From contig CAVVLG010000003.1 of NCBI GenBank assembly GCA_963749085.1, positions 80,235 through 144,234 on the forward strand: a stretch of DNA of 64,000 bases, written 5' to 3'. A model generated the notes under the pieces. The model was given only the letters and a program-made list of their open reading frames with translations, had not been told where the DNA came from and made no database searches. The translations under genes were made by a program, and so were the position numbers. How positions within the stretch are numbered: position 1 is the stretch's first letter; every line of letters starts with the position of its first letter. Positions 21,448 to 47,140 of this stretch are shown piece by piece. Source of the DNA: Candidatus Adlerbacteria bacterium (GTDB lineage Bacteria > Patescibacteriota > Minisyncoccia > Phycocordibacterales > SBAW01).

Positions 21448-24400
21448 TCAGCGGGCGCCTAGCAAACTCAATAGACCACTTAACCCATTCATGAATAGCT
21501 GAAATGGTGCCTCGATAACGGCGGCCATGAAGTTAGCCCCTCCGCCAGAGGCCTGGGACGTACTGGGATTCACAGTGATGGTTATCTGCGCGGTCGCCGA
21601 TCCTGCGCTGTTGATGGCGGTCATCGTGTAGGTCGTCGTCGTCGTGGGGCTGAAGTACGTGACGTTATAGCCGTAGGAAGCTGAATAATTGCCGACGCTG
21701 CCGATGCCATGATCGATAGAAATTGAGGTCGCATTGAGCACGTCCCAGGTGACCAGCACGGATTGTCCTGCCGCAATCGTGGCGTTGCCAGCGAAGTACA
21801 CAATGTAGGGCGTGGGGGGCATCACAACCGTAATTTGTGGACTAGTCGCCAAAACAGTACCGCTACAGTAAATGTTGCCATTTGCCAAAGTATATCCGCC
21901 TCGGCAGAGTTGCAATTGGTAGGTCCCGCCCATTGGCGGCATTGTTATAGTCATAACTGCCTGCCCAGAAGCATTCACACTCGCGGAAGAGACCGCCGGG
22001 GTAATAAACGCAGAACCAGCAGGCTCGGGGTATGGGGCTTCAACTCCGTTCGAGTTAACGACTAATATAACATCTCCCGATTGCTCATTCGGATCAACGA
22101 CAGTCGCGGTCACATAACCCTGAGGACCGACGCTTTGTGGAGACACGGAGACCGAGGGACTGGCCGGATTCACCGTCACGGTCGCAGTGGCAGTCACCGA
22201 GCCCGCGGAGTTAGTGGCGGTCAAGGTGTAGGTGGTGGTCACGGTGGGAGTGACTTGGAGGGAGGTGGCCGTGCCTTCATTGGTGCCGTTGATGAGGAAC
22301 GAGGTTGCGCCGGTGGCACTCCAGGAAAGCGTGGTGGAGTTGCCTGCCGTTATCGTGCTTGGGGAGGCGGAGAAGGAAGAGATGGTGGGGGCGCTTGGAG
22401 CGGGTGTCACCGTCACGGTCGCAGTGGCAGTCACCGAGCCCGCGGAGTTAGTGGCGGTCAAGGTGTAGGTGGTGGTCACGGTGGGAGTGACTTGGAGGGA
22501 GGTGGCCGTGCCTTCATTGGTGCCGTTGATGAGGAACGAGGTTGCGCCGGTGGCACTCCAGGAAAGCGTGGTGGAGTTGCCTGCCGTTATCGTGCTTGGG
22601 GAGGCGGAGAAGGAAGAGATGGTGGGGGCGCTTGGAGCGGGTGTCACCGTCACGGTCGCAGTGGCAGTCACCGAGCCCGCGGAGTTAGTGGCGGTCAAGG
22701 TGTAGGTGGTGGTCACGGTGGGAGTGACTTGGAGGGAGGTGGCCGTGCCTTCATTGGTGCCGTTGATGAGGAACGAGGTTGCGCCGGTGGCACTCCAGGA
22801 AAGCGTGGTGGAGTTGCCTGCCGTTATCGTGCTTGGGGAGGCGGAGAAGGAAGAGATGGTGGGGGCGCTTGGAGCGGGTGTCACCGTCACGGTCGCAGTG
22901 GCAGTCACCGAGCCCGCGGAGTTAGTGGCGGTCAAGGTGTAGGTGGTGGTCACGGTGGGAGTGACTTGGAGGGAGGTGGCCGTGCCTTCATTGGTGCCGT
23001 TGATGAGGAACGAGGTTGCGCCGGTGGCACTCCAGGAAAGCGTGGTGGAGTTGCCTGCCGTTATCGTGCTTGGGGAGGCGGAGAAGGAAGAGATGGTGGG
23101 GGCGGAGGTGGTGACACAGGTACCCCCCGAAAGTACGTAGCCAGCAGGACAGGCCACCGTCACGGTCGCAGTGGCAGTCACCGAGCCCGCGGAGTTAGTG
23201 GCGGTCAAGGTGTAGGTGGTGGTCACGGTGGGAGTGACTTGGAGGGAGGTGGCCGTGCCTTCATTGGTGCCGTTGATGAGGAACGAGGTTGCGCCGGTGG
23301 CACTCCAGGAAAGCGTGGTGGAGTTGCCTGCCGTTATCGTGCTTGGGGAGGCGGAGAAGGAAGAGATGGTGGGGGCGGAGATATTTGTAACGCTTACATT
23401 AGCCGTTGCCATGGGACTGGTTCCCTCTGGGCCGATACACTGCATGCCGGCGCTGTACGTTCCGGCGGAAGAAGGAGTTATGGAGAGCGAACCGCTCGTG
23501 GCATATGTACCGCCGTGGGAGCCGGTACAAGAGGTTGCGTTAGTCGAAGACCAAGTGAATGTAAATGAACTCCCCAGGGTGATGGAGGTCGGATTTGCCG
23601 AAACGCTCACGGTGGGTGCATTCGGGATAACAGGATTCACCGTCACGGTCGCAGTGGCAGTCACCGAGCCCGCGGAGTTAGTGGCGGTCAAGGTGTAGGT
23701 GGTGGTCACGGTGGGAGTGACTTGGAGGGAGGTGGCCGTGCCTTCATTGGTGCCGTTGATGAGGAACGAGGTTGCGCCGGTGGCACTCCAGGAAAGCGTG
23801 GTGGAGTTGCCTGCCGTTATCGTGCTTGGGGAGGCGGAGAAGGAAGAGATGGTGGGGGCGGAGGTGGTCGCGGAGGTGGTCTGCGAGGCGACACAGGTAC
23901 CGTTCAAAGGTACGGAGCTGGGAGAACAGGTCGTCGTCACAGGATTCACCGTCACGGTCGCAGTGGCAGTCACCGAGCCCGCGGAGTTAGTGGCGGTCAA
24001 GGTGTAGGTGGTGGTCACGGTGGGAGTGACTTGGAGGGAGGTGGCCGTGCCTTCATTGGTGCCGTTGATGAGGAACGAGGTTGCGCCGGTGGCACTCCAG
24101 GAAAGCGTGGTGGAGTTGCCTGCCGTTATCGTGCTTGGGGAGGCGGAGAAGGAAGAGATGGTGGGGGCGCTTGGAGCGGGTGTCACCGTCACGGTCGCAG
24201 TGGCAGTCACCGAGCCCGCGGAGTTAGTGGCGGTCAAGGTGTAGGTGGTGGTCACGGTGGGAGTGACTTGGAGGGAGGTGGCCGTGCCTTCATTGGTGCC
24301 GTTGATGAGGAACGAGGTTGCGCCGGTGGCACTCCAGGAAAGCGTGGTGGAGTTGCCTGCCGTTATCGTGCTTGGGGAGGCGGAGAAGGAAGAGATGGTG

Positions 24401-24716
24401 GGGGCGGAGGTGGTTTGTGTAAGTGTTTGCTTACTACCCGAACATGACATTGTCGCACGAGTAGCAGGACCGACGAAGCCATACCCAGTAGTATCAGGAG
24501 AACCTGAGGAGACAATGCCGTGAGATGCCTGGTAGTTTTGTATTGCCTGTTCGGTCAGAGGACCGAAGTAGCCGGTGGTGGGACTTATGCTTAAAAATGA
24601 TTGCAGTTGGGTGACTTCCCCATTAGTTGTCGCATCAGTGACTCCGGCATACAGGTTATACGACAGGTCGATGCAGGAAGGGGCAGATGCGGTGGAGACA
24701 CTAGAACCAGTCTCAA
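21448..24716 (-). pseudogene. C-terminal portion of an IS-disrupted giant cell-surface protein (PG-binding-like segment + 10 Ig-like repeats + C-terminal domain)
   Basis: The reading frame is open from the stop just inside the IS left IR; the first ATG (MSCSGSK) lies at 24450 with no signal peptide; a 'LQSFLSISPTTGYFGPLTEQAIQNYQASHG' PG_binding_1-like segment is encoded upstream of that ATG; 9 identical plus 1 variant 79-aa repeats 'APTISSFSASPSTITAGNSTTLSWSATGATSFLINGT...TYTLTATNSAGSVTATATVTV'. Confidence 0.7.
22170..24410 (-). repeat. tandem 237-bp coding repeats (at least 9 nucleotide-identical copies)
   Basis: Three alternative-frame ORFs (22232, 22469, 22706) translate to identical 78-aa strings, and five more (22943, 23216, 23699, 24008, 24245) share the same 53-residue N-terminus and sit on the same 237-nt register, so the unit is repeated with perfect or near-perfect nucleotide identity. 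Confidence 0.9.
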
Positions 24717-25153
24717 AAATAATGTTTGAGTAATAGCATGATGCACGCGAGCTTCACGAAGGCGGCAAAGTTCTGCAGTTTGTATTCGTAGCGAGTCACG
24801 AGCTTTCTCCAGTTGTGCATCCACGCGAACAGCCGCTCAATCTTCCACCGGCGCTTGTAGGAGCGCAGCGCCCTGCCGTCCTGTGTTGCTCTGCGCACCC
24901 GGCCTCTGCGATGCGGTGAAATGAGTTTGATGCGGTATTTGTTCAGGAGCGTTCCATCCAGCGGATCGGAATCATATGCTCGGTCAGCCGTGAGGCGAAG
25001 CGGATTCTGTCGGGTAAATCGCCGGGCAAGCGTGTCTTCAACCAACCGGACTTCGCTCGGAGAAGCAGAGGCCACATAGACGGCGACTGGAAGAGAGCCT
25101 TCGTCCGCAATCGCCATGATCTTGGTGCCTTTCCCACGCTTCGTGGGTCCCAC
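24713..25153 (-). CDS. IS5-family transposase OrfB (DDE catalytic part, -1 frame)
   Basis: '...LTADRAYDSD...YKRRWKIERLFAWMHNWRKLVTRYEYK' DDE_Tnp_1 C-terminal signature; begins just downstream of the slippery site. Confidence 0.75.
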   Translation of the reverse strand: MGPTKRGKGTKIMAIADEGSLPVAVYVASASPSEVRLVEDTLARRFTRQNPLRLTADRAYDSDPLDGTLLNKYRIKLISPHRRGRVRRATQDGRALRSYKRRWKIERLFAWMHNWRKLVTRYEYKLQNFAAFVKLACIMLLLKHYF

Positions 25154-25485
25154 GCCAAGACCCCCTTTTTTGCCCCCGCGAAGGTGGCATCGAGAAAGCA
25201 GCTCCTGAGCTTGATGCGCCCCCGGTATTCCATGTCCATGGCCAGGGCTTCGACGATGCGGTCAAAGGCGCCGCTCTCCACCCACTGCTGGAACCTGCGA
25301 TGGCAGGTCTGGTAGGGCGGGTAGTCTTTCGGCAGGTGCTTCCACTGGGCGCCGGTCTTCAGTGCCCAGAGGATACCTTCCAGTATCTTGCGGTCGTCCT
25401 GCCGGGGACGGCCGCGGGTTTCCAAACGCTTGAGGGGTGTGACAAACGGAGCGATGACGCTCCACTGCTCGTTGGTGAGAGGCAT
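24943..25485 (-). CDS. IS5-family transposase OrfA (N-terminal DUF4096-type region)
   Basis: 'MPLTNEQWSVIAPFVTPLKR...RKILEGILWALKTGAQWKHLPKDYPPYQTCHRRFQQWVESGAF', the typical IS427/IS1031-group N-terminus; contains 'GAKKG' = GGG GCA AAA AAG GGG slippery heptamer. Confidence 0.75.
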   Translation of the reverse strand: MPLTNEQWSVIAPFVTPLKRLETRGRPRQDDRKILEGILWALKTGAQWKHLPKDYPPYQTCHRRFQQWVESGAFDRIVEALAMDMEYRGRIKLRSCFLDATFAGAKKGVLAWDPRSVGKAPRSWRLRTKALFQSPSMWPLLLRAKSGWLKTRLPGDLPDRIRFASRLTEHMIPIRWMERS

Positions 25486-25518
25486 GGGCAGGCAAATTAC
25501 GGGTAACGCCCTGTGCCT

Positions 25519-26124
25519 TTAGTCTACAACGGTATTTTTGAGATTGGTTCTAGTAGTGGTGGGTGCGGTGGTGGGAGTTTGGGTTGTGGTTTGGGTGGGC
25601 GCGGTGGATGTAGTAGGGACAGTAGGCGCAGTGGTGGACGTGGTAAGAGGAGCTTCAGTTCCCGCGCACACCCTGGCAATAACAGGACGAGTCAGTCCCC
25701 CCACAATACCGTACGCGGGTAATCCATACGTTTGCTGGAACTGGATTACATAGCTCTGCGTCAAGTGACCAAAGTAACCGCTTACGAGGTCATTGGGGTT
25801 GACATTATAGTAATCTGCAAGGAATTTCTGAAGCTCACTCACCTGACCTTGGGGATTAGTGTTGGAATCGGTAGCCCCTCTTGAGAGGGTCTGCGAAAGT
25901 TGCGGGCAATAGTAACCGTTATTAATGGTACCGTTTCCAAAGTCATCTGGTGTGGCTTGGGCGAGCACTACCGCAGCCGGCTGAGGTGAACTCGTTTGCG
26001 TGAGAAAAGTGCTTGTCGTAACTCCGGCAACTGCTATGCCGGTCATCATAAAAAAAGCGGCCACAAATAGGCCGAGATAGGCCGAGGATGCAGCAAACAA
26101 ATTAGCGAATTCGTGATCTTTCAT
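25519..26124 (-). pseudogene. N-terminal fragment of the IS-disrupted surface protein (signal/TM anchor + PG_binding_1 domain + Thr/Pro linker)
   Basis: 'MKDHEFANLFAASSAYLGLFVAAFFMMTGIAVAG' TM/signal; 'QVSELQKFLADYYNVNPNDLVSGYFGHLTQSYVIQFQQTYGLPAYGIVGGLTRPV' peptidoglycan-binding fold; ORF runs through the CTAG duplication into the IS IR and stops 9 codons later. Confidence 0.7.
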
Positions 26125-26458: not shown

Positions 26459-26647
26459 CTACTTCTTTTTTTGGGTGTCAGAGAGCTTCAGCGTCATCAC
26501 TCCCACAAGTTCCAAGAGCGCTTTGTTCTCCTTCTTGAGCTTCACGATCTGCCCAAGGGTAGGATTGCCCTCCACTCCCTTGGAGAGCCAGTAGTAGATA
26601 GTCTTCGGCGAGACGCCATGTTCTTCTCCCGCCTGGTAGACGGGCAT
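26459..26647 (-). CDS. small HTH + leucine-zipper protein (IS3 OrfA-like or recombination directionality-factor-like)
   Basis: 'GVSPKTIYYWLSK' HTH followed by 'LKKENKALLELVGVMTLKL' heptad, an architecture seen in IS3-family OrfA proteins. Confidence 0.35.
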   Translation of the reverse strand: MPVYQAGEEHGVSPKTIYYWLSKGVEGNPTLGQIVKLKKENKALLELVGVMTLKLSDTQKKK

Positions 26648-26815: not shown

Positions 26816-28147
26816 ATGGACACATCAACAATAACGCTGCGTAAGCCCCAAGCGGGCAATCGGCAAGAAGTTAAGCAGGTGCAAGTGCGGTACTGCCTGT
26901 ATGCAAGAAAGAGTACCGAGTCAGAGGAACGCCAAGTATTAAGCATTGACTCCCAAATCAAGGAGATGATGCAGATGGCGGAGCGGGAGAATCTAGAAAT
27001 CGTCGAGATAAAGCGCGAGAGCCACTCGGCCAAGGAGACCGGCCAGCGGCCCATCTTCAACGAGATAGTAGATAACCTGCGTGCCAATAAATACAACGGT
27101 ATATTAACGTGGGCACCGGATCGCATCAGTAGAAACGCCGGTGACTTAGGTTGCATTGTCGACCTCATGGACGCGGGCAAGCTGCATGAGATACGCACGT
27201 TCAGCCAGCGATTTAGCAATAACCCGAATGAAAAGTTCCTCCTAACAATTCTGGGTGGTCAGGCAAAACTTGAAAACGATAACCGAGGCATCAATGTAAA
27301 GCGCGGACTACGCGCTCGCTGCGAGATGGGCCTGTGGCCCGGGTACCCGCCGCTAGGTTACCTTAACCAAAAGCGCATGGATAAGAAATGCCAGCTCATC
27401 GTGGACCCCTTGCGTGCGCCCGTGGTAAAGCAGATATTCGAAAAGGTGGCACATGAGAAGTGGAGTGGCAGACAGGTATACAACTGGCTCAAGTTCAAGC
27501 TCAACTTCTACACGCGCGGAAACAAGCCGCTCACACTCTCGGGTGTGTATCGTATCCTCGATAATCGGTTCTACTACGGGCTCTTCGAGTACCCAAGAAA
27601 AAGCGACAACTGGTACCAGGGGCAACATACGCCGCTAATCAATCAGGAATTATGGGAGAAGGCGCAGGCGCAGCTGACGCGGGACAACATTGTCAGAGAG
27701 AACAAGGAATTCTCCTTCACCAAGCTATTCACGTGCGGGTATTGCGGAAGTGGTATCAGCGCCGAAGAGAAGTGGAAGCCACTCAAGGACGGTACCTCGG
27801 CGCACTACATCTACTATGGCTGCACGCGTGCCAAGGATCGGAACTGCAAAAACAAGTACATACGAGAGGAGGAGTTGATTGAGGAGCTGCTGAAAATCCT
27901 CGATCAAATCAACCTCAATGAGTTGGGTGTTCGCCACAAGATGGAGGACGAGATACGCCGGTTCAACAAGCTGCAGAAAATCGTGAGCGGGACGTCAGCC
28001 ACCACGTTAGTCGAGGACGACGACATCAACATACGCCGCTACGCCAAATACCTGCTCAAGGAAGGGAGCGTTTCTGACAAGCGGGAGCTCTTGGCGAACA
28101 TGCGAAGTAGATTGCTATATAAGGATAAAACGATTACGTTCGCCTAA
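26816..28147 (+). CDS. large serine recombinase (copy 1)
   Basis: Resolvase catalytic N-domain ('YARKSTESEERQVLSIDSQ', catalytic Ser context), recombinase domain and a C-terminal Zn ribbon 'CGYCGS...YYGCTRAKDRNCKNKY'; 443 aa. Confidence 0.85.
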   Translation: MDTSTITLRKPQAGNRQEVKQVQVRYCLYARKSTESEERQVLSIDSQIKEMMQMAERENLEIVEIKRESHSAKETGQRPIFNEIVDNLRANKYNGILTWAPDRISRNAGDLGCIVDLMDAGKLHEIRTFSQRFSNNPNEKFLLTILGGQAKLENDNRGINVKRGLRARCEMGLWPGYPPLGYLNQKRMDKKCQLIVDPLRAPVVKQIFEKVAHEKWSGRQVYNWLKFKLNFYTRGNKPLTLSGVYRILDNRFYYGLFEYPRKSDNWYQGQHTPLINQELWEKAQAQLTRDNIVRENKEFSFTKLFTCGYCGSGISAEEKWKPLKDGTSAHYIYYGCTRAKDRNCKNKYIREEELIEELLKILDQINLNELGVRHKMEDEIRRFNKLQKIVSGTSATTLVEDDDINIRRYAKYLLKEGSVSDKRELLANMRSRLLYKDKTITFA

Positions 28148-28259
28148 CGAAAATGCGGCCACCATGCCGCTCTTTTCGTTCAACTTTTTGTGCTGAGCAT
28201 TGCGGGTCGCACTGACACATCGACATTGCGGGAACACGCCGATACAAAGTTGTCAATGC

Positions 28260-28345
28260 GGAGAGGGTGAGATTCGAACTCACGGTAGGGTTTCCCCCAC
28301 GCCGCATTTCGAGTGCGGTGCCTTCGACCACTCAGCCACCTCTCC
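28260..28345 (-). tRNA. tRNA-Ser (anticodon CGA)
   Basis: Class II tRNA fold by hand: acceptor GGAGAGG/CCTCTCC, anticodon loop CUCGAAA, long variable arm, T-arm GAGTTCGAATCTC; 3' end faces the recombinase gene. Confidence 0.75.
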
Positions 28346-28428: not shown

Positions 28429-28501
28429 GCGCGGTTAGCTCAGTTGGTAGAGCATCCCCTTGACGTGGGGAGGGTCGCAGGTTCGAGTCCTGCACCGCGC
28501 A
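28429..28501 (+). tRNA. tRNA-Val (anticodon GAC)
   Basis: Acceptor GCGCGGT/ACCGCGC, D-arm TAGCTCAGTTGGTAGAGCA, anticodon loop TTGACGT, T-arm GCAGGTTCGAGTCCTGC. Confidence 0.8.
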
Positions 28502-28504
28502 CTA

Positions 28505-29557
28505 ATGAAAATCTTGGCAATAGAAACATCGTGCGACGAGACTGGTATCGCGATAGTCGAAGGAGAAAAAACTTCTAAAGGTTTTGTCTTCAAAACACTC
28601 GACGCGACATTACTCTCGCAAGCACAGCTCCACGCTGCCTTCGGCGGCGTCTATCCCAATCTCGCCAAACGCGAACACGAAAAGAATCTGCCGGTACTTT
28701 TTGAAAAATTCGAGAATGAAAAAGTAGATGCGTTGGCGGTAACTGTTGGCCCGGGACTTGAGCCAGCGCTCTGGACCGGTATTACTTATGCACAAAAACT
28801 AGCAGAAGAAAGTCGATTTCCTCTGTTGTCGGTAAATCACATGGAAGGGCATCTTATTTCCTCACTAGTGCAAAACGGGAGACTGGAAAATGTCGAAATG
28901 TCAGTGCTTGCTCTCCTCATCTCCGGAGGTCATACCGAGTTCGTGCTCATGCGGGAATGGTTTCAATATCAAATAATCGGCGAAACGCTCGATGACGCCG
29001 TGGGCGAAGCGTTTGATAAAGTTGCGCGCATGCTCGACCTTCCCTACCCCGGGGGACCTGAAATAAGTAAACTTGCGAGTGCTGCGCGGGAGGAAAACCT
29101 TTCATCGGAAATAACCTTGCCCCGACCTATGCTCGCACATAAAAATTGTGACGTGTCTTTTTCAGGACTGAAAACCGCCGCATTGTATGCCCTGCGCGAG
29201 AAAAGTCTAAACGAGGATGGCAAGAAAGCGTTTGCACGCGAGTTTGAAGACGCGGTTGTCGACGTGTTCGTCGCAAAAACGCGCCGCGCACTTCAGGAGA
29301 CCGCCGCTAAAACGTTCGTAATCGGCGGCGGTGTCGCGGCCAATCGCTATATCCGCGAGCGGCTGGAGCAATTAGTGCTTGAGGAATTCCCTGACACTGA
29401 ACTGCGCCTCCCGGAACTTTCCATAACCGGCGACAATGCGGTAATGATAGCTGAAGTTGCGCTCGCACATCTTCTCTCAGGCGACTGGAAGCTGGAGCAC
29501 AAAGATTTTCAGGAAATCCGAGCGGTCGGCAATCTCTCGATTTCGACCTTAAAATAA
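28505..29557 (+). CDS. tsaD: tRNA N6-threonylcarbamoyladenosine synthase
   Basis: 'MKILAIETSCDETGIAIV' Kae1/TsaD N-terminus and 'IGGGVAANRYIRERL' motif; start placed at the Met directly after tRNA-Val. Confidence 0.88.
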   Translation: MKILAIETSCDETGIAIVEGEKTSKGFVFKTLDATLLSQAQLHAAFGGVYPNLAKREHEKNLPVLFEKFENEKVDALAVTVGPGLEPALWTGITYAQKLAEESRFPLLSVNHMEGHLISSLVQNGRLENVEMSVLALLISGGHTEFVLMREWFQYQIIGETLDDAVGEAFDKVARMLDLPYPGGPEISKLASAAREENLSSEITLPRPMLAHKNCDVSFSGLKTAALYALREKSLNEDGKKAFAREFEDAVVDVFVAKTRRALQETAAKTFVIGGGVAANRYIRERLEQLVLEEFPDTELRLPELSITGDNAVMIAEVALAHLLSGDWKLEHKDFQEIRAVGNLSISTLK

Positions 29558-33440: not shown

Positions 33441-33508
33441 GGGCGATACCGTACTGACTTCGATGGGGGCCGGTATCGGTTCCCTGCGCCACAGCGCTGT
33501 GCCCCCGG
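33441..33508 (+). repeat. 68-bp direct repeat, copy A (followed by a 22-bp partial second unit)
   Basis: gggcgataccgtactgacttcgatgggggccggtatcggttccctgcgccacagcgctgtgcccccgg is identical to 46984..47051; it contains an 8-bp IR (cgataccg/cggtatcg) and the 12-bp palindrome cacagcgctgtg. Confidence 0.85.
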
Positions 33509-45585: not shown

Positions 45586-46923
45586 ATGAATATGACGTTT
45601 GAGGGTACCGCAGGGGTATTAGGGACAAAGCCGGAAATTAAGGAGACAGTGCGGGTGTGCTACTGCCTGTATGCTCGGAAGTCGACCGAACAAGACGAGG
45701 TGCAAGCGCTCTCTATCGAGTCGCAGGTCAAGGAGATGACTGCGCTCGCCACGCGGGACGGCTTGGAGATCGTTGAAATAAAACGGGAGTCGCACTCGGC
45801 GAAGGAGACCAATCAGCGGCCAGTCTTCAACGAGATGCTCGAGGAGATACGAGTGGGTACATATAATGGAATACTGACATGGGCAGCGGATCGCATCAGC
45901 AGAAACGCCGGGGACTTGGGCAAGGTCGTAGACCTCATGGATGCAGGGCTGCTCCATGGCATACAAACGTACAGTCAGAAATTCTCGAATAATCCGAACG
46001 AGAAATTCTTGTTGATGATCCTGTGCAGCCAGGCGAAGCTCGAAAACGACAACAAGCGGATTAACGTAAAGAGGGGCCTGCGCGCTCGGGCGGAGATGGG
46101 TATGCTGCCGGGATGGGCACCCATTGGATATCTCAACGACACGCGCAAGGACCACAGGTGCGAATATCTGTTGGACCCGCTTCGAGCGCCGGTGGTGAGG
46201 ATGATATTCGAGAAGGTTGCCAAAGAACGCTGGAGCGGGCTTAAGATATACCACTGGCTCAAGGAGGATCTAAAATTCACGACCCGCAGCGGTAAGAACC
46301 TCAATATCAGCACCCTCTATGAGATGTTGAAAAATCCCTTCTACTGCGGAGTGTTCGAGTACCCCCGCAAGAGCGGCAATTGGTACGTGGGCAAGCATGA
46401 GCCCCTCATCACAAGAGAGCTGTTTGAGCAGGTGCGGCAGAAAATCGTCGAGGAGACGGAGCCGCGTAAGCGCTCCAACGAATTCGCCTTTGTCCGCATG
46501 ATGACGTGTGGGGACTGCGGCTCCAGCATCACGGCATTCGAGAAGGATAAATTCATCAAGGGAACTGGGGAGACGCGCACGTACCGCTATTATGCGTGCT
46601 GTCGGTCGAAGGACCGCCATTGCAAGAGCCTCTATGTACGCGAGGACGCTATGATGGAGCAGCTCATCGGCATCATCGACGAGGTGGAAATAGACCAGCT
46701 GGGTGCCCGGCATCTTATCGACAGAGAGATTGTTCGCTTCAACAAACTACAGTCGAAGGTACTTGGCAGCAAGGAAAAAGAGAAGGTGCGCGACATAGAC
46801 GTGCGGCGCTACGCGAAGTACCTGCTTGAGGAAGGGACGACTGAAGAGAAGCGCGAGCTGCTCGGACAGCTGCGCGGCAGGATTGTGCTGAAGGATAAAC
46901 AGATATCAATCGCGAAGGCCTAG
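45586..46923 (+). CDS. large serine recombinase (copy 2, paralog of 26816..28147)
   Basis: 445 aa with the same three-domain layout; Zn ribbon 'CGDCGS...YYACCRSKDRHCKSLY'; colinear with copy 1 and judged by eye about 60% identical. Confidence 0.85.
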   Translation: MNMTFEGTAGVLGTKPEIKETVRVCYCLYARKSTEQDEVQALSIESQVKEMTALATRDGLEIVEIKRESHSAKETNQRPVFNEMLEEIRVGTYNGILTWAADRISRNAGDLGKVVDLMDAGLLHGIQTYSQKFSNNPNEKFLLMILCSQAKLENDNKRINVKRGLRARAEMGMLPGWAPIGYLNDTRKDHRCEYLLDPLRAPVVRMIFEKVAKERWSGLKIYHWLKEDLKFTTRSGKNLNISTLYEMLKNPFYCGVFEYPRKSGNWYVGKHEPLITRELFEQVRQKIVEETEPRKRSNEFAFVRMMTCGDCGSSITAFEKDKFIKGTGETRTYRYYACCRSKDRHCKSLYVREDAMMEQLIGIIDEVEIDQLGARHLIDREIVRFNKLQSKVLGSKEKEKVRDIDVRRYAKYLLEEGTTEEKRELLGQLRGRIVLKDKQISIAKA

Positions 46924-46983: not shown

Positions 46984-47051
46984 GGGCGATACCGTACTGA
47001 CTTCGATGGGGGCCGGTATCGGTTCCCTGCGCCACAGCGCTGTGCCCCCGG
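46984..47051 (+). repeat. 68-bp direct repeat, copy B
   Basis: Identical to 33441..33508; starts 61 bp after the recombinase stop. Confidence 0.85.
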
Positions 47052-47140
47052 CAGGAATTGCACCCACATTGACCCCTTAGGACGGGGCGGTTCTATCTGT
47101 TGAACTACGGGGGCTATAAACGCCACCACTGTAGCACACG

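Follow-up and report, generated by a model that had tools for sequence, protein, structure and literature searches.

An IS427-group insertion sequence that probably interrupts a large surface-protein gene in a Candidatus Adlerbacteria bacterium

The interrupted gene and the inserted element

The DNA analysed here is a stretch of 64,000 nucleotides from a Candidatus Adlerbacteria bacterium (GenBank assembly GCA_963749085.1, contig CAVVLG010000003.1, positions 80,235 to 144,234 of the forward strand), hereafter called the window, in which positions are counted from the first letter. Between 26124 and 21448 it carries, in the direction of transcription, the 5' part of a gene for a putative surface protein, an insertion sequence of the IS5 family, and the 3' part of a surface-protein gene. 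All genes of this locus discussed here lie on the minus strand, and the sequences quoted in a first-pass annotation, made from the letters of the DNA, were given as the reverse complement.

The 5' fragment (25551-26124, residues 1-191) encodes a hydrophobic N-terminal segment, a first peptidoglycan-binding module of the PG_binding_1 type (module 1, about 25687-25848) and a linker rich in threonine and proline. In the translation, the hydrophobic stretch, which the first-pass annotation had called a signal peptide, falls at about residues 9-35. The open reading frame (ORF, 26124->25519) begins with ATG, enters the element as ...ACC ACT ACT AG|A and stops after ten codons, the first of which straddles the junction. 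The resulting product has 201 amino acids and ends in ...TTTRTNLKNTVVD, its stop codon (25519-25521) being located inside the element, and P0001 is exactly this product. The 3' fragment (21448-24703, residues 192-1275) encodes a second PG_binding_1 module (module 2, about 24427-24678), ten immunoglobulin-like (Ig-like) repeats (about 21571-24420) and a hydrophobic C-terminus. Its frame opens 17 codons inside the element, crosses the boundary and extends without interruption to 21448; it contains no ATG, GTG or TTG before 24450, so that the first possible start is the ATG at 24450, past module 2. These translations agree with the first-pass annotation, which had the upstream ORF running into the element and stopping there, and the downstream frame re-opening inside the other inverted repeat. 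The annotation had further proposed, from a hand translation, that the flanks are in frame after removal of the element and one CTAG, and that they once formed one protein of more than 1,200 amino acids. When the deletion of 24705-25553 (849 bp = 3 x 283) was carried out in silico, the same junction was obtained, and the flanks merged into a single ORF of 1,275 amino acids reading ...TTAPTTTSVSTASAPSCIDLSY... across the join. The empty site generated in this way is ...GGTGGAGACACTAGTAGTGGTGGG..., and an empty-site allele would read ...GGAGACACTAGTAGTGGT... with the full 1,275-amino-acid ORF.

Two separate stretches of the joined protein match PF01471 (PG_binding_1), with 63.9 bits where the cut-off is 23, thus the peptidoglycan-binding-like segment that had been suspected after the junction is recognized by Pfam as a second module. 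Both modules have many homologues annotated with PF01471. The count of ten Ig-like repeats was reproduced by jackhmmer, which also delimits ten. Eight of them share a core of 71 amino acids (213 nt) that is 100% identical at the DNA level; they lie within 22171-24396 on the minus strand, span about 2.2 kb, and are spaced by 237 nt where adjacent. This identity points to a very recent expansion, to gene conversion, or else to one consensus having been copied in the assembly. The Pfam I-set profile sums to 103 bits over the joined protein, and none of the individual stretches passes by itself. For two repeats, AlphaFold2 run on the sequence alone gave a model of unusable quality (predicted local distance difference test, pLDDT, of 49). 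Its place was taken by a model of one 79-amino-acid repeat based on an alignment of 31 homologous repeats, which has seven strands, a pLDDT of 96 and a predicted template modelling score of 0.81. Foldseek matched this model in the PDB to Ig or I-set domains at all top ten ranks, with a PKD domain at rank 12; the query-normalised TM-scores were mostly 0.5-0.72 and the E-values weak (3e-3 or weaker). As far as the model goes, the repeats are an Ig-like beta-sandwich.

The element occupies 24704-25550 (minus strand, 847 bp) when its termini are taken as G...C and the duplicated target as TA. Following the first-pass annotation, which counted CTAG as the duplication, the same element would be 24705-25549, or 845 bp. 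Its GC content is 57.9%, against 51.8% for the window. The ends of the 845-bp element are AACCAGTCTCAAAAATA and, reverse-complemented, AACCAATCTCAAAAATA, which are identical at 16 of 17 positions. Inclusion of the adjacent G...C extends the terminal inverted repeats to 18 bp with 17 of 18 positions identical: the left repeat, 5' of the transposase reading frame orfA, is GAACCAATCTCAAAAATA on the minus strand (25533-25550), and the right repeat is GAACCAGTCTCAAAAATA on the plus strand (24704-24721). A 16-nt end motif has just two sites in the window, even with two mismatches allowed, while 100 shuffled sequences had a mean of 0.06 matches and never as many as two. As the annotation had said, each repeat is flanked by CTAG, at 24701-24704 on the side of the downstream gene part and at 25550-25553 on the side of the upstream part. 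No other palindromic tetramer is as depleted in the window as CTAG (67 observed versus 249 expected), and the restored 3.8-kb gene holds only three CTAG sites, in one of which the element sits. Because CTAG is so rare in the window, two copies that directly abut the ends are not a product of chance but a signature of the element.

To delimit related elements, 52 independent insertions of relatives were defined by their ends, which share the consensus AAsCyATCTCAwAAAT. These elements are 799-932 bp long, with a median of 854. A central TA was present on both sides in 46 of the 52 insertions and CTAG on both sides in 25. Where the flanking tetramers differ they are mirror images (e.g. TTAG...CTAA), and they were never equal 4-mers except for CTAG. 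In 42 of the 52, the element is directly bordered by a G at one end and by a C at the opposite end. Since CTAG is palindromic, its presence on both flanks of our copy fits a 4-bp duplication of CTAG or a 2-bp duplication of TA alike. Judging from the relatives, we favour TA as the true target duplication (here 24702-24703 and 25551-25552), G...C as the termini and CTAG/YTAR as the preferred target. Thus, CTAG does flank both ends as first annotated, but the duplicated part would be its central TA only. The excision product is identical under the two conventions.

Two overlapping reading frames account for the transposase. orfA (24943-25485, minus strand, 180 amino acids when unshifted) encodes the DUF4096 DNA-binding part and the first catalytic aspartate, D99, and the orfB frame (24713-25177, minus strand) encodes a second aspartate, D168, and a glutamate, E217. 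We take these three residues to be the catalytic DDE (Asp-Asp-Glu) triad from their position and from general knowledge of the family. A slippery heptamer, A_AAA_AAG (25165-25171, minus strand), is in register with orfA and is the predicted site of a programmed -1 frameshift (25171->25165), which would join the two frames into an orfAB fusion of 257 amino acids (25485->24716, stop codon 24713-24715). The first aspartate precedes the shift and the second aspartate and the glutamate follow it; therefore, from the layout of the frames, a complete DDE transposase is producible only as this fusion. The IS5-family profile NF033580 (transpos_IS5_3, NCBIfam) matches the fusion with 222 bits, its cut-off being 110, and aligns residues 3-253 with positions 5-258 of 258; this full match was obtained only with the frameshifted fusion. 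Other NCBIfam IS5 profiles score far under their cut-offs. Pfam gave 94.6 bits for DUF4096 and 57.7 bits for DDE_Tnp_1. The IS5-family assignment, the intact heptamer and the presence of both transposase frames, as they appear in the first-pass annotation, are all borne out by these matches. In an alignment of 26 sequences, comprising this transposase and 25 homologues with 52-59% identity, no variation occurs at D99, D168 and E217 or, around the shift site, at K106 and G108, and this transposase has kept all residues that are invariant among the homologues. Of 75 relatives, 57 have orfB in the -1 frame and 33 have A6G or A7G. A scan with Rfam found six tRNAs and no frameshift element, and a scan for sigma-70 promoters and terminators gave nothing interpretable.

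The exact 146-amino-acid orfB product is found on two contigs, the longer of which measures 518,058 bp, whereas the other proteins of the window map to one contig of 305,831 bp. As the stub P0001 is present on one contig only, the copy on the 518-kb contig would be at a different site. A further orfB copy of 114 amino acids, identical as far as it goes, is located on a 12,459-bp contig, possibly at the contig end. Going by these product matches, the element is present in at least two copies. BLAST with the element and with its protein revealed no second copy or remnant in the 64-kb window.

Contiguity of the two halves

The simplest explanation is that a single copy of the element transposed into a CTAG in the Thr/Pro-rich linker of a 1,275-amino-acid surface-protein gene. 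The intact gene would have encoded the N-terminal hydrophobic segment, module 1, the linker, module 2 and the ten Ig-like repeats, and removal of the element with one copy of the duplicated TA would restore it in frame. However, because CTAG is the preferred target, identical CTAG flanks alone do not prove that the halves were once contiguous; they are equally expected after recombination between two copies of the element or in a chimeric assembly.

The flanks could, for example, never have been one gene. In that case, two copies of the element would have inserted into CTAG sites of neighbouring paralogues, one of the module-1 type and one of the module-2 type, and recombination or an adjacent deletion would have removed the DNA in between. 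That the element has at least two copies is compatible with this, and so is the organization of most close homologues, which have one peptidoglycan-binding module directly after the signal peptide; among the first 120 homologues, each peptidoglycan-binding protein has one module only. Moreover, in the related locus L081, described below, two separate peptidoglycan-binding/Ig-like genes stand in tandem. An exhaustive HMMER search of 1.84 billion representatives, using module 1, linker and module 2 as the query, pointed the other way, with proteins that contain two or three matched stretches ranking directly below the query itself. P0290, an uninterrupted homologue in which module 1, a Thr/Pro linker and module 2 follow one another in the same way, aligns with the restored protein in one collinear high-scoring segment pair of 210 columns (45% identity, E 3e-45) that spans module 1, a TQTP-type linker, the junction, and module 2 with its SSG(S/T)PDTTGYG insertion. 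P0268 and P0266 show the same tandem order at lower identity. An origin from two genes would also require two or three events where one suffices, would restore the frame one time in three, and is not accompanied by a second copy or remnant of the element in the window. We consider it very improbable, and a gene fusion by deletion between element copies was likewise judged unlikely after P0290 had been found.

Other homologues resemble single parts of the protein. Module 2 is shared with P0030 and P0069 ('peptidoglycan-binding protein, Candidatus Kaiserbacteria') at 65-77% identity, and from the element to the first start the gene has 85 open codons, which are homologous to peptidoglycan-binding modules, with up to 77% identity to P0030. 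P0020 has module 1 at 63% identity, followed by Ig-like repeats. No homologue is closer than about 77% in any one module, none is an allele-level orthologue, and only this gene has the array of eight DNA-identical repeats.

An error of assembly would offer another way to bring the flanks together, if the assembler had passed through the repeated element and joined flanks of different copies, or had misplaced the element. The exact orfB product on two contigs shows that the sequence is repeated, and the third copy, which ends after 114 amino acids on the 12.5-kb contig, looks like a place where repeats break assemblies. Yet the flanks complement each other as parts of a single architecture and share strand and frame, which is backed by P0290, and the joins are precise to the base at the ends of the inverted repeats and carry the target signature of the family. 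The contig also resolves eight DNA-identical repeats over about 2.2 kb, which suggests that long reads were used, and by extension that the 0.85-kb element was spanned as well. To an artefact we assign an even smaller chance than to an origin from two genes.

Several observations nevertheless weigh against a simple insertion or limit what can be said about it. The junctions were judged from the assembled sequence. The public data searched yielded neither an empty-site allele nor a sibling genome: a search of 5.8 billion proteins for the uninterrupted allele returned as its only high-identity match the truncated product itself, and an exact 27-mer of the flank and an exact 31-mer of the element had 0 matches in metagenomes of the Joint Genome Institute (JGI). 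Ten housekeeping proteins of the window are all singleton clusters or absent from the database. The other orfB copies are known from product records, and may lie in the same genome. Finally, the RNA 3' of the heptamer can form a hairpin, but its folding is not significantly better than that of shuffled sequences (z = -1.24), and we make no claim for a stimulatory RNA structure at this site. Thus, of the two things the first-pass annotation had proposed to look for, an uninterrupted allele was not encountered, whereas further copies of the element are indicated by the identical orfB product on a second contig. Since P0290 aligns across the junction, the frame is restored and the two halves share their orientation, we regard a simple insertion into a once-contiguous gene as by far the most likely reading of the sequence.

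Age of the insertion and surroundings of the gene

Stop codons and frameshifts are absent from both halves of the gene, the element has remained intact, and another contig encodes an identical orfB product; for these reasons the insertion appears to be evolutionarily recent, and the element is probably still able to transpose. The opposite would be that the insertion is real but old, the element a dead relic with nothing mobile left, and the gene already dispensable or a pseudogene. Both transposition activity and frameshifting are predictions from sequence, the inverted repeats differ by one mismatch, and the heptamer is not followed by a significant stimulatory RNA structure, all of which would suit a relic. 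A decaying element would, on the other hand, hardly be expected to have kept all residues that are invariant in 25 homologues, DDE triad included, with the heptamer in register, next to 1,275 codons of host gene that are free of stops and frameshifts and with a 100% identical 146-amino-acid orfB product at another locus. A relic thus seems about as improbable as an assembly error.

It could further be imagined that the element is newly arrived and now expanding in the very small genome of a probably episymbiotic Patescibacteria bacterium, and that its insertion, at the head of the type IV pilus cluster, creates a mixed population of cells with and without the surface protein, and hence on/off variation of a candidate host-attachment factor rather than simple gene decay. 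This thought comes from the closest relatives being only about 60% identical and mostly from unrelated phyla, and from the GC content of the element, which is 6 points above that of the window; we regard it as rather unlikely.

The disrupted gene is followed, 130 bp downstream, by a type IV pilus cluster (13141-21317, minus strand) with pilM, pilN, pilO, genes for pilB-like and pilT-like ATPases, pilC and a pilin gene. On its other side, a gap of 690 bp separates it from a divergently oriented gene for a large serine recombinase (26816-28147, plus strand). In this gap lies an ORF of 62 amino acids (26459-26647, minus strand) with weak matches to the helix-turn-helix families HTH_Tnp_1 and MerR (E about 2e-3), which could be excisionase-like or regulator-like. 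A second large serine recombinase (45586-46923, plus strand) is a paralogue of the first with 58% identity. Both adjoin tRNA genes, tRNA-Ser (28258-28345) and tRNA-Arg (47042-47114), respectively, and both are divergent from a giant minus-strand gene, the split peptidoglycan-binding/Ig gene in the first case and an RHS gene in the second. The first recombinase belongs to a 90%-identity cluster of 19 members, including an entry labelled 'Patescibacteria group bacterium'. In view of this cluster, and of the housekeeping proteins of the window all being singletons, the first recombinase seems to be common to several genomes.

Around the second recombinase, a perfect 68-bp direct repeat (33441-33508 and 46984-47051) brackets 13.5 kb (about 33.4-47.1 kb), comprising a gene for a 2,902-amino-acid SpvB/RHS-repeat protein (45274->36566), three ORFs without Pfam match and the recombinase gene itself. 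On the right, 10 nt of the repeat copy are shared with the 3' end of tRNA-Arg (minus strand). The layout of this interval suggests an integrated island bounded by attL and attR sites. For the first recombinase, no att-like direct repeat of the region next to tRNA-Ser was found in the window, and the idea that the disrupted gene is part of a similar island was dropped for that reason. A comparable neighbourhood is present in L081 (GCA_043780835.1, JAYWCB010000005.1, 2331-11720), where a 440-amino-acid serine recombinase lies about 4.3 kb from two tandem genes for peptidoglycan-binding surface proteins, P0020 and a 539-amino-acid paralogue, with Ig-like or TIG-like repeats, echoing the combination of recombinase and surface-protein gene in the window. 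Further along, the ORF listed for TsaD (28460-29557, with a TTG start at 28460) overlaps tRNA-Val (28429-28502), and the real start is probably the internal methionine of ...MKILAIETSCDET....

Consequences and relation to known elements

With the frames as they stand, the insertion is a knock-out of the surface-protein gene, an event of an ordinary kind; the inactivation claimed by the first-pass annotation agrees with the 201-amino-acid stub and with the remainder having no start before 24450. Translation from the native start would still yield the stub, which comprises the hydrophobic N-terminus and module 1. As for the remaining 1,084 codons, it follows from the sequence that module 2 would not be translated, and that the Ig-repeat array would be unable to reach the surface, because there is no start until after module 2 and no export signal. 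A polar effect on the downstream pilus genes is possible.

For the annotation of this genome, the ORFs of 201 and roughly 1,000 amino acids should be considered pieces of one interrupted gene of 1,275 codons, and the two small ORFs between them one frameshifted transposase. The biological gain is modest: the locus contributes a new IS427-group element that is well delimited and clearly prefers CTAG/TA as its target, and it suggests that such elements move within a very reduced genome, probably of the Patescibacteria. The labels of homologues, namely Kaiserbacteria, Paceibacterota and 'Patescibacteria group', speak for this host assignment. The disrupted gene, upstream of pilus genes, is of a type that could mediate attachment to the wall of another cell. 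Pili have been implicated in host attachment of Saccharibacteria in work cited by PMC10633639, a connection that we offer as a lead only. If both alleles are present in the source population, the locus would be a natural knock-out for the role of the surface protein.

To place the element among known ones, 5.8 billion proteins and 185,579 species genomes were searched, and the closest full-length transposases are 57-62% identical. Their hosts are Acidobacteriota, Chloroflexota, Desulfobacterales, Bacteroidota and others, with one labelled Saccharimonadales. A scan of genome contigs, from a set that does not include the source genome, gave relatives at 41-62% identity. An identity of at most 62% means, by usual ISfinder practice, a new element deserving its own name. 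On the evidence of its transposase and its ends, the element is a new, previously uncatalogued member of the well-known IS427 group of the IS5 family. Expansion of a member of this subgroup is well exemplified by an Acidobacteriaceae metagenome-assembled genome (MFD05502.bin.1.183, CAWCMB01, L056-L080), which contains at least 15 near-identical related elements of 854 bp, almost all of them flanked by CTAG.

Members of the IS427 group such as IS1248, ISPpa2, ISPaes1 and ISPam4 of Paracoccus are 832-865 bp long, with inverted repeats of 13-21 bp and a 2-bp duplication (PMC3281130, Table 2), and have two overlapping ORFs with a conserved frameshift motif, the full DDE being present in the fusion alone (PMC3281130). 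The element described here resembles them in its length of 845-847 bp, its 18-bp repeat, its two ORFs and frameshift motif, and the position of D99 before and of D168 and E217 after the shift, and it would do so in its 2-bp duplication too if this is TA, as its relatives suggest; the likeness to the named Paracoccus elements was judged by the published description. The strong preference for CTAG likewise comes from the relatives analysed here and not from PMC3281130. The best annotated matches, with 55% identity, are plasmid-borne IS5-family elements of Leptospira weilii, Deinococcus ficus and Deinococcus deserti, followed at about 49-51% by most other Deinococcus elements, including the ISDds9 family of D. 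deserti. In the best rows these matches cover 97-100% of the fused transposase, and tblastn splits most of them into two pieces, as a frameshifted gene would lead one to expect. The elements of Leptospira and Deinococcus are from different phyla and distant in sequence, and the comparison with them covers the transposase. According to the transposase profile, IS5 proper of E. coli is part of the same family. It also targets YTAR-type sites including CTAG, and differs in being about 1.2 kb long, in having one long transposase ORF without a frameshift, and in producing a 4-bp duplication.

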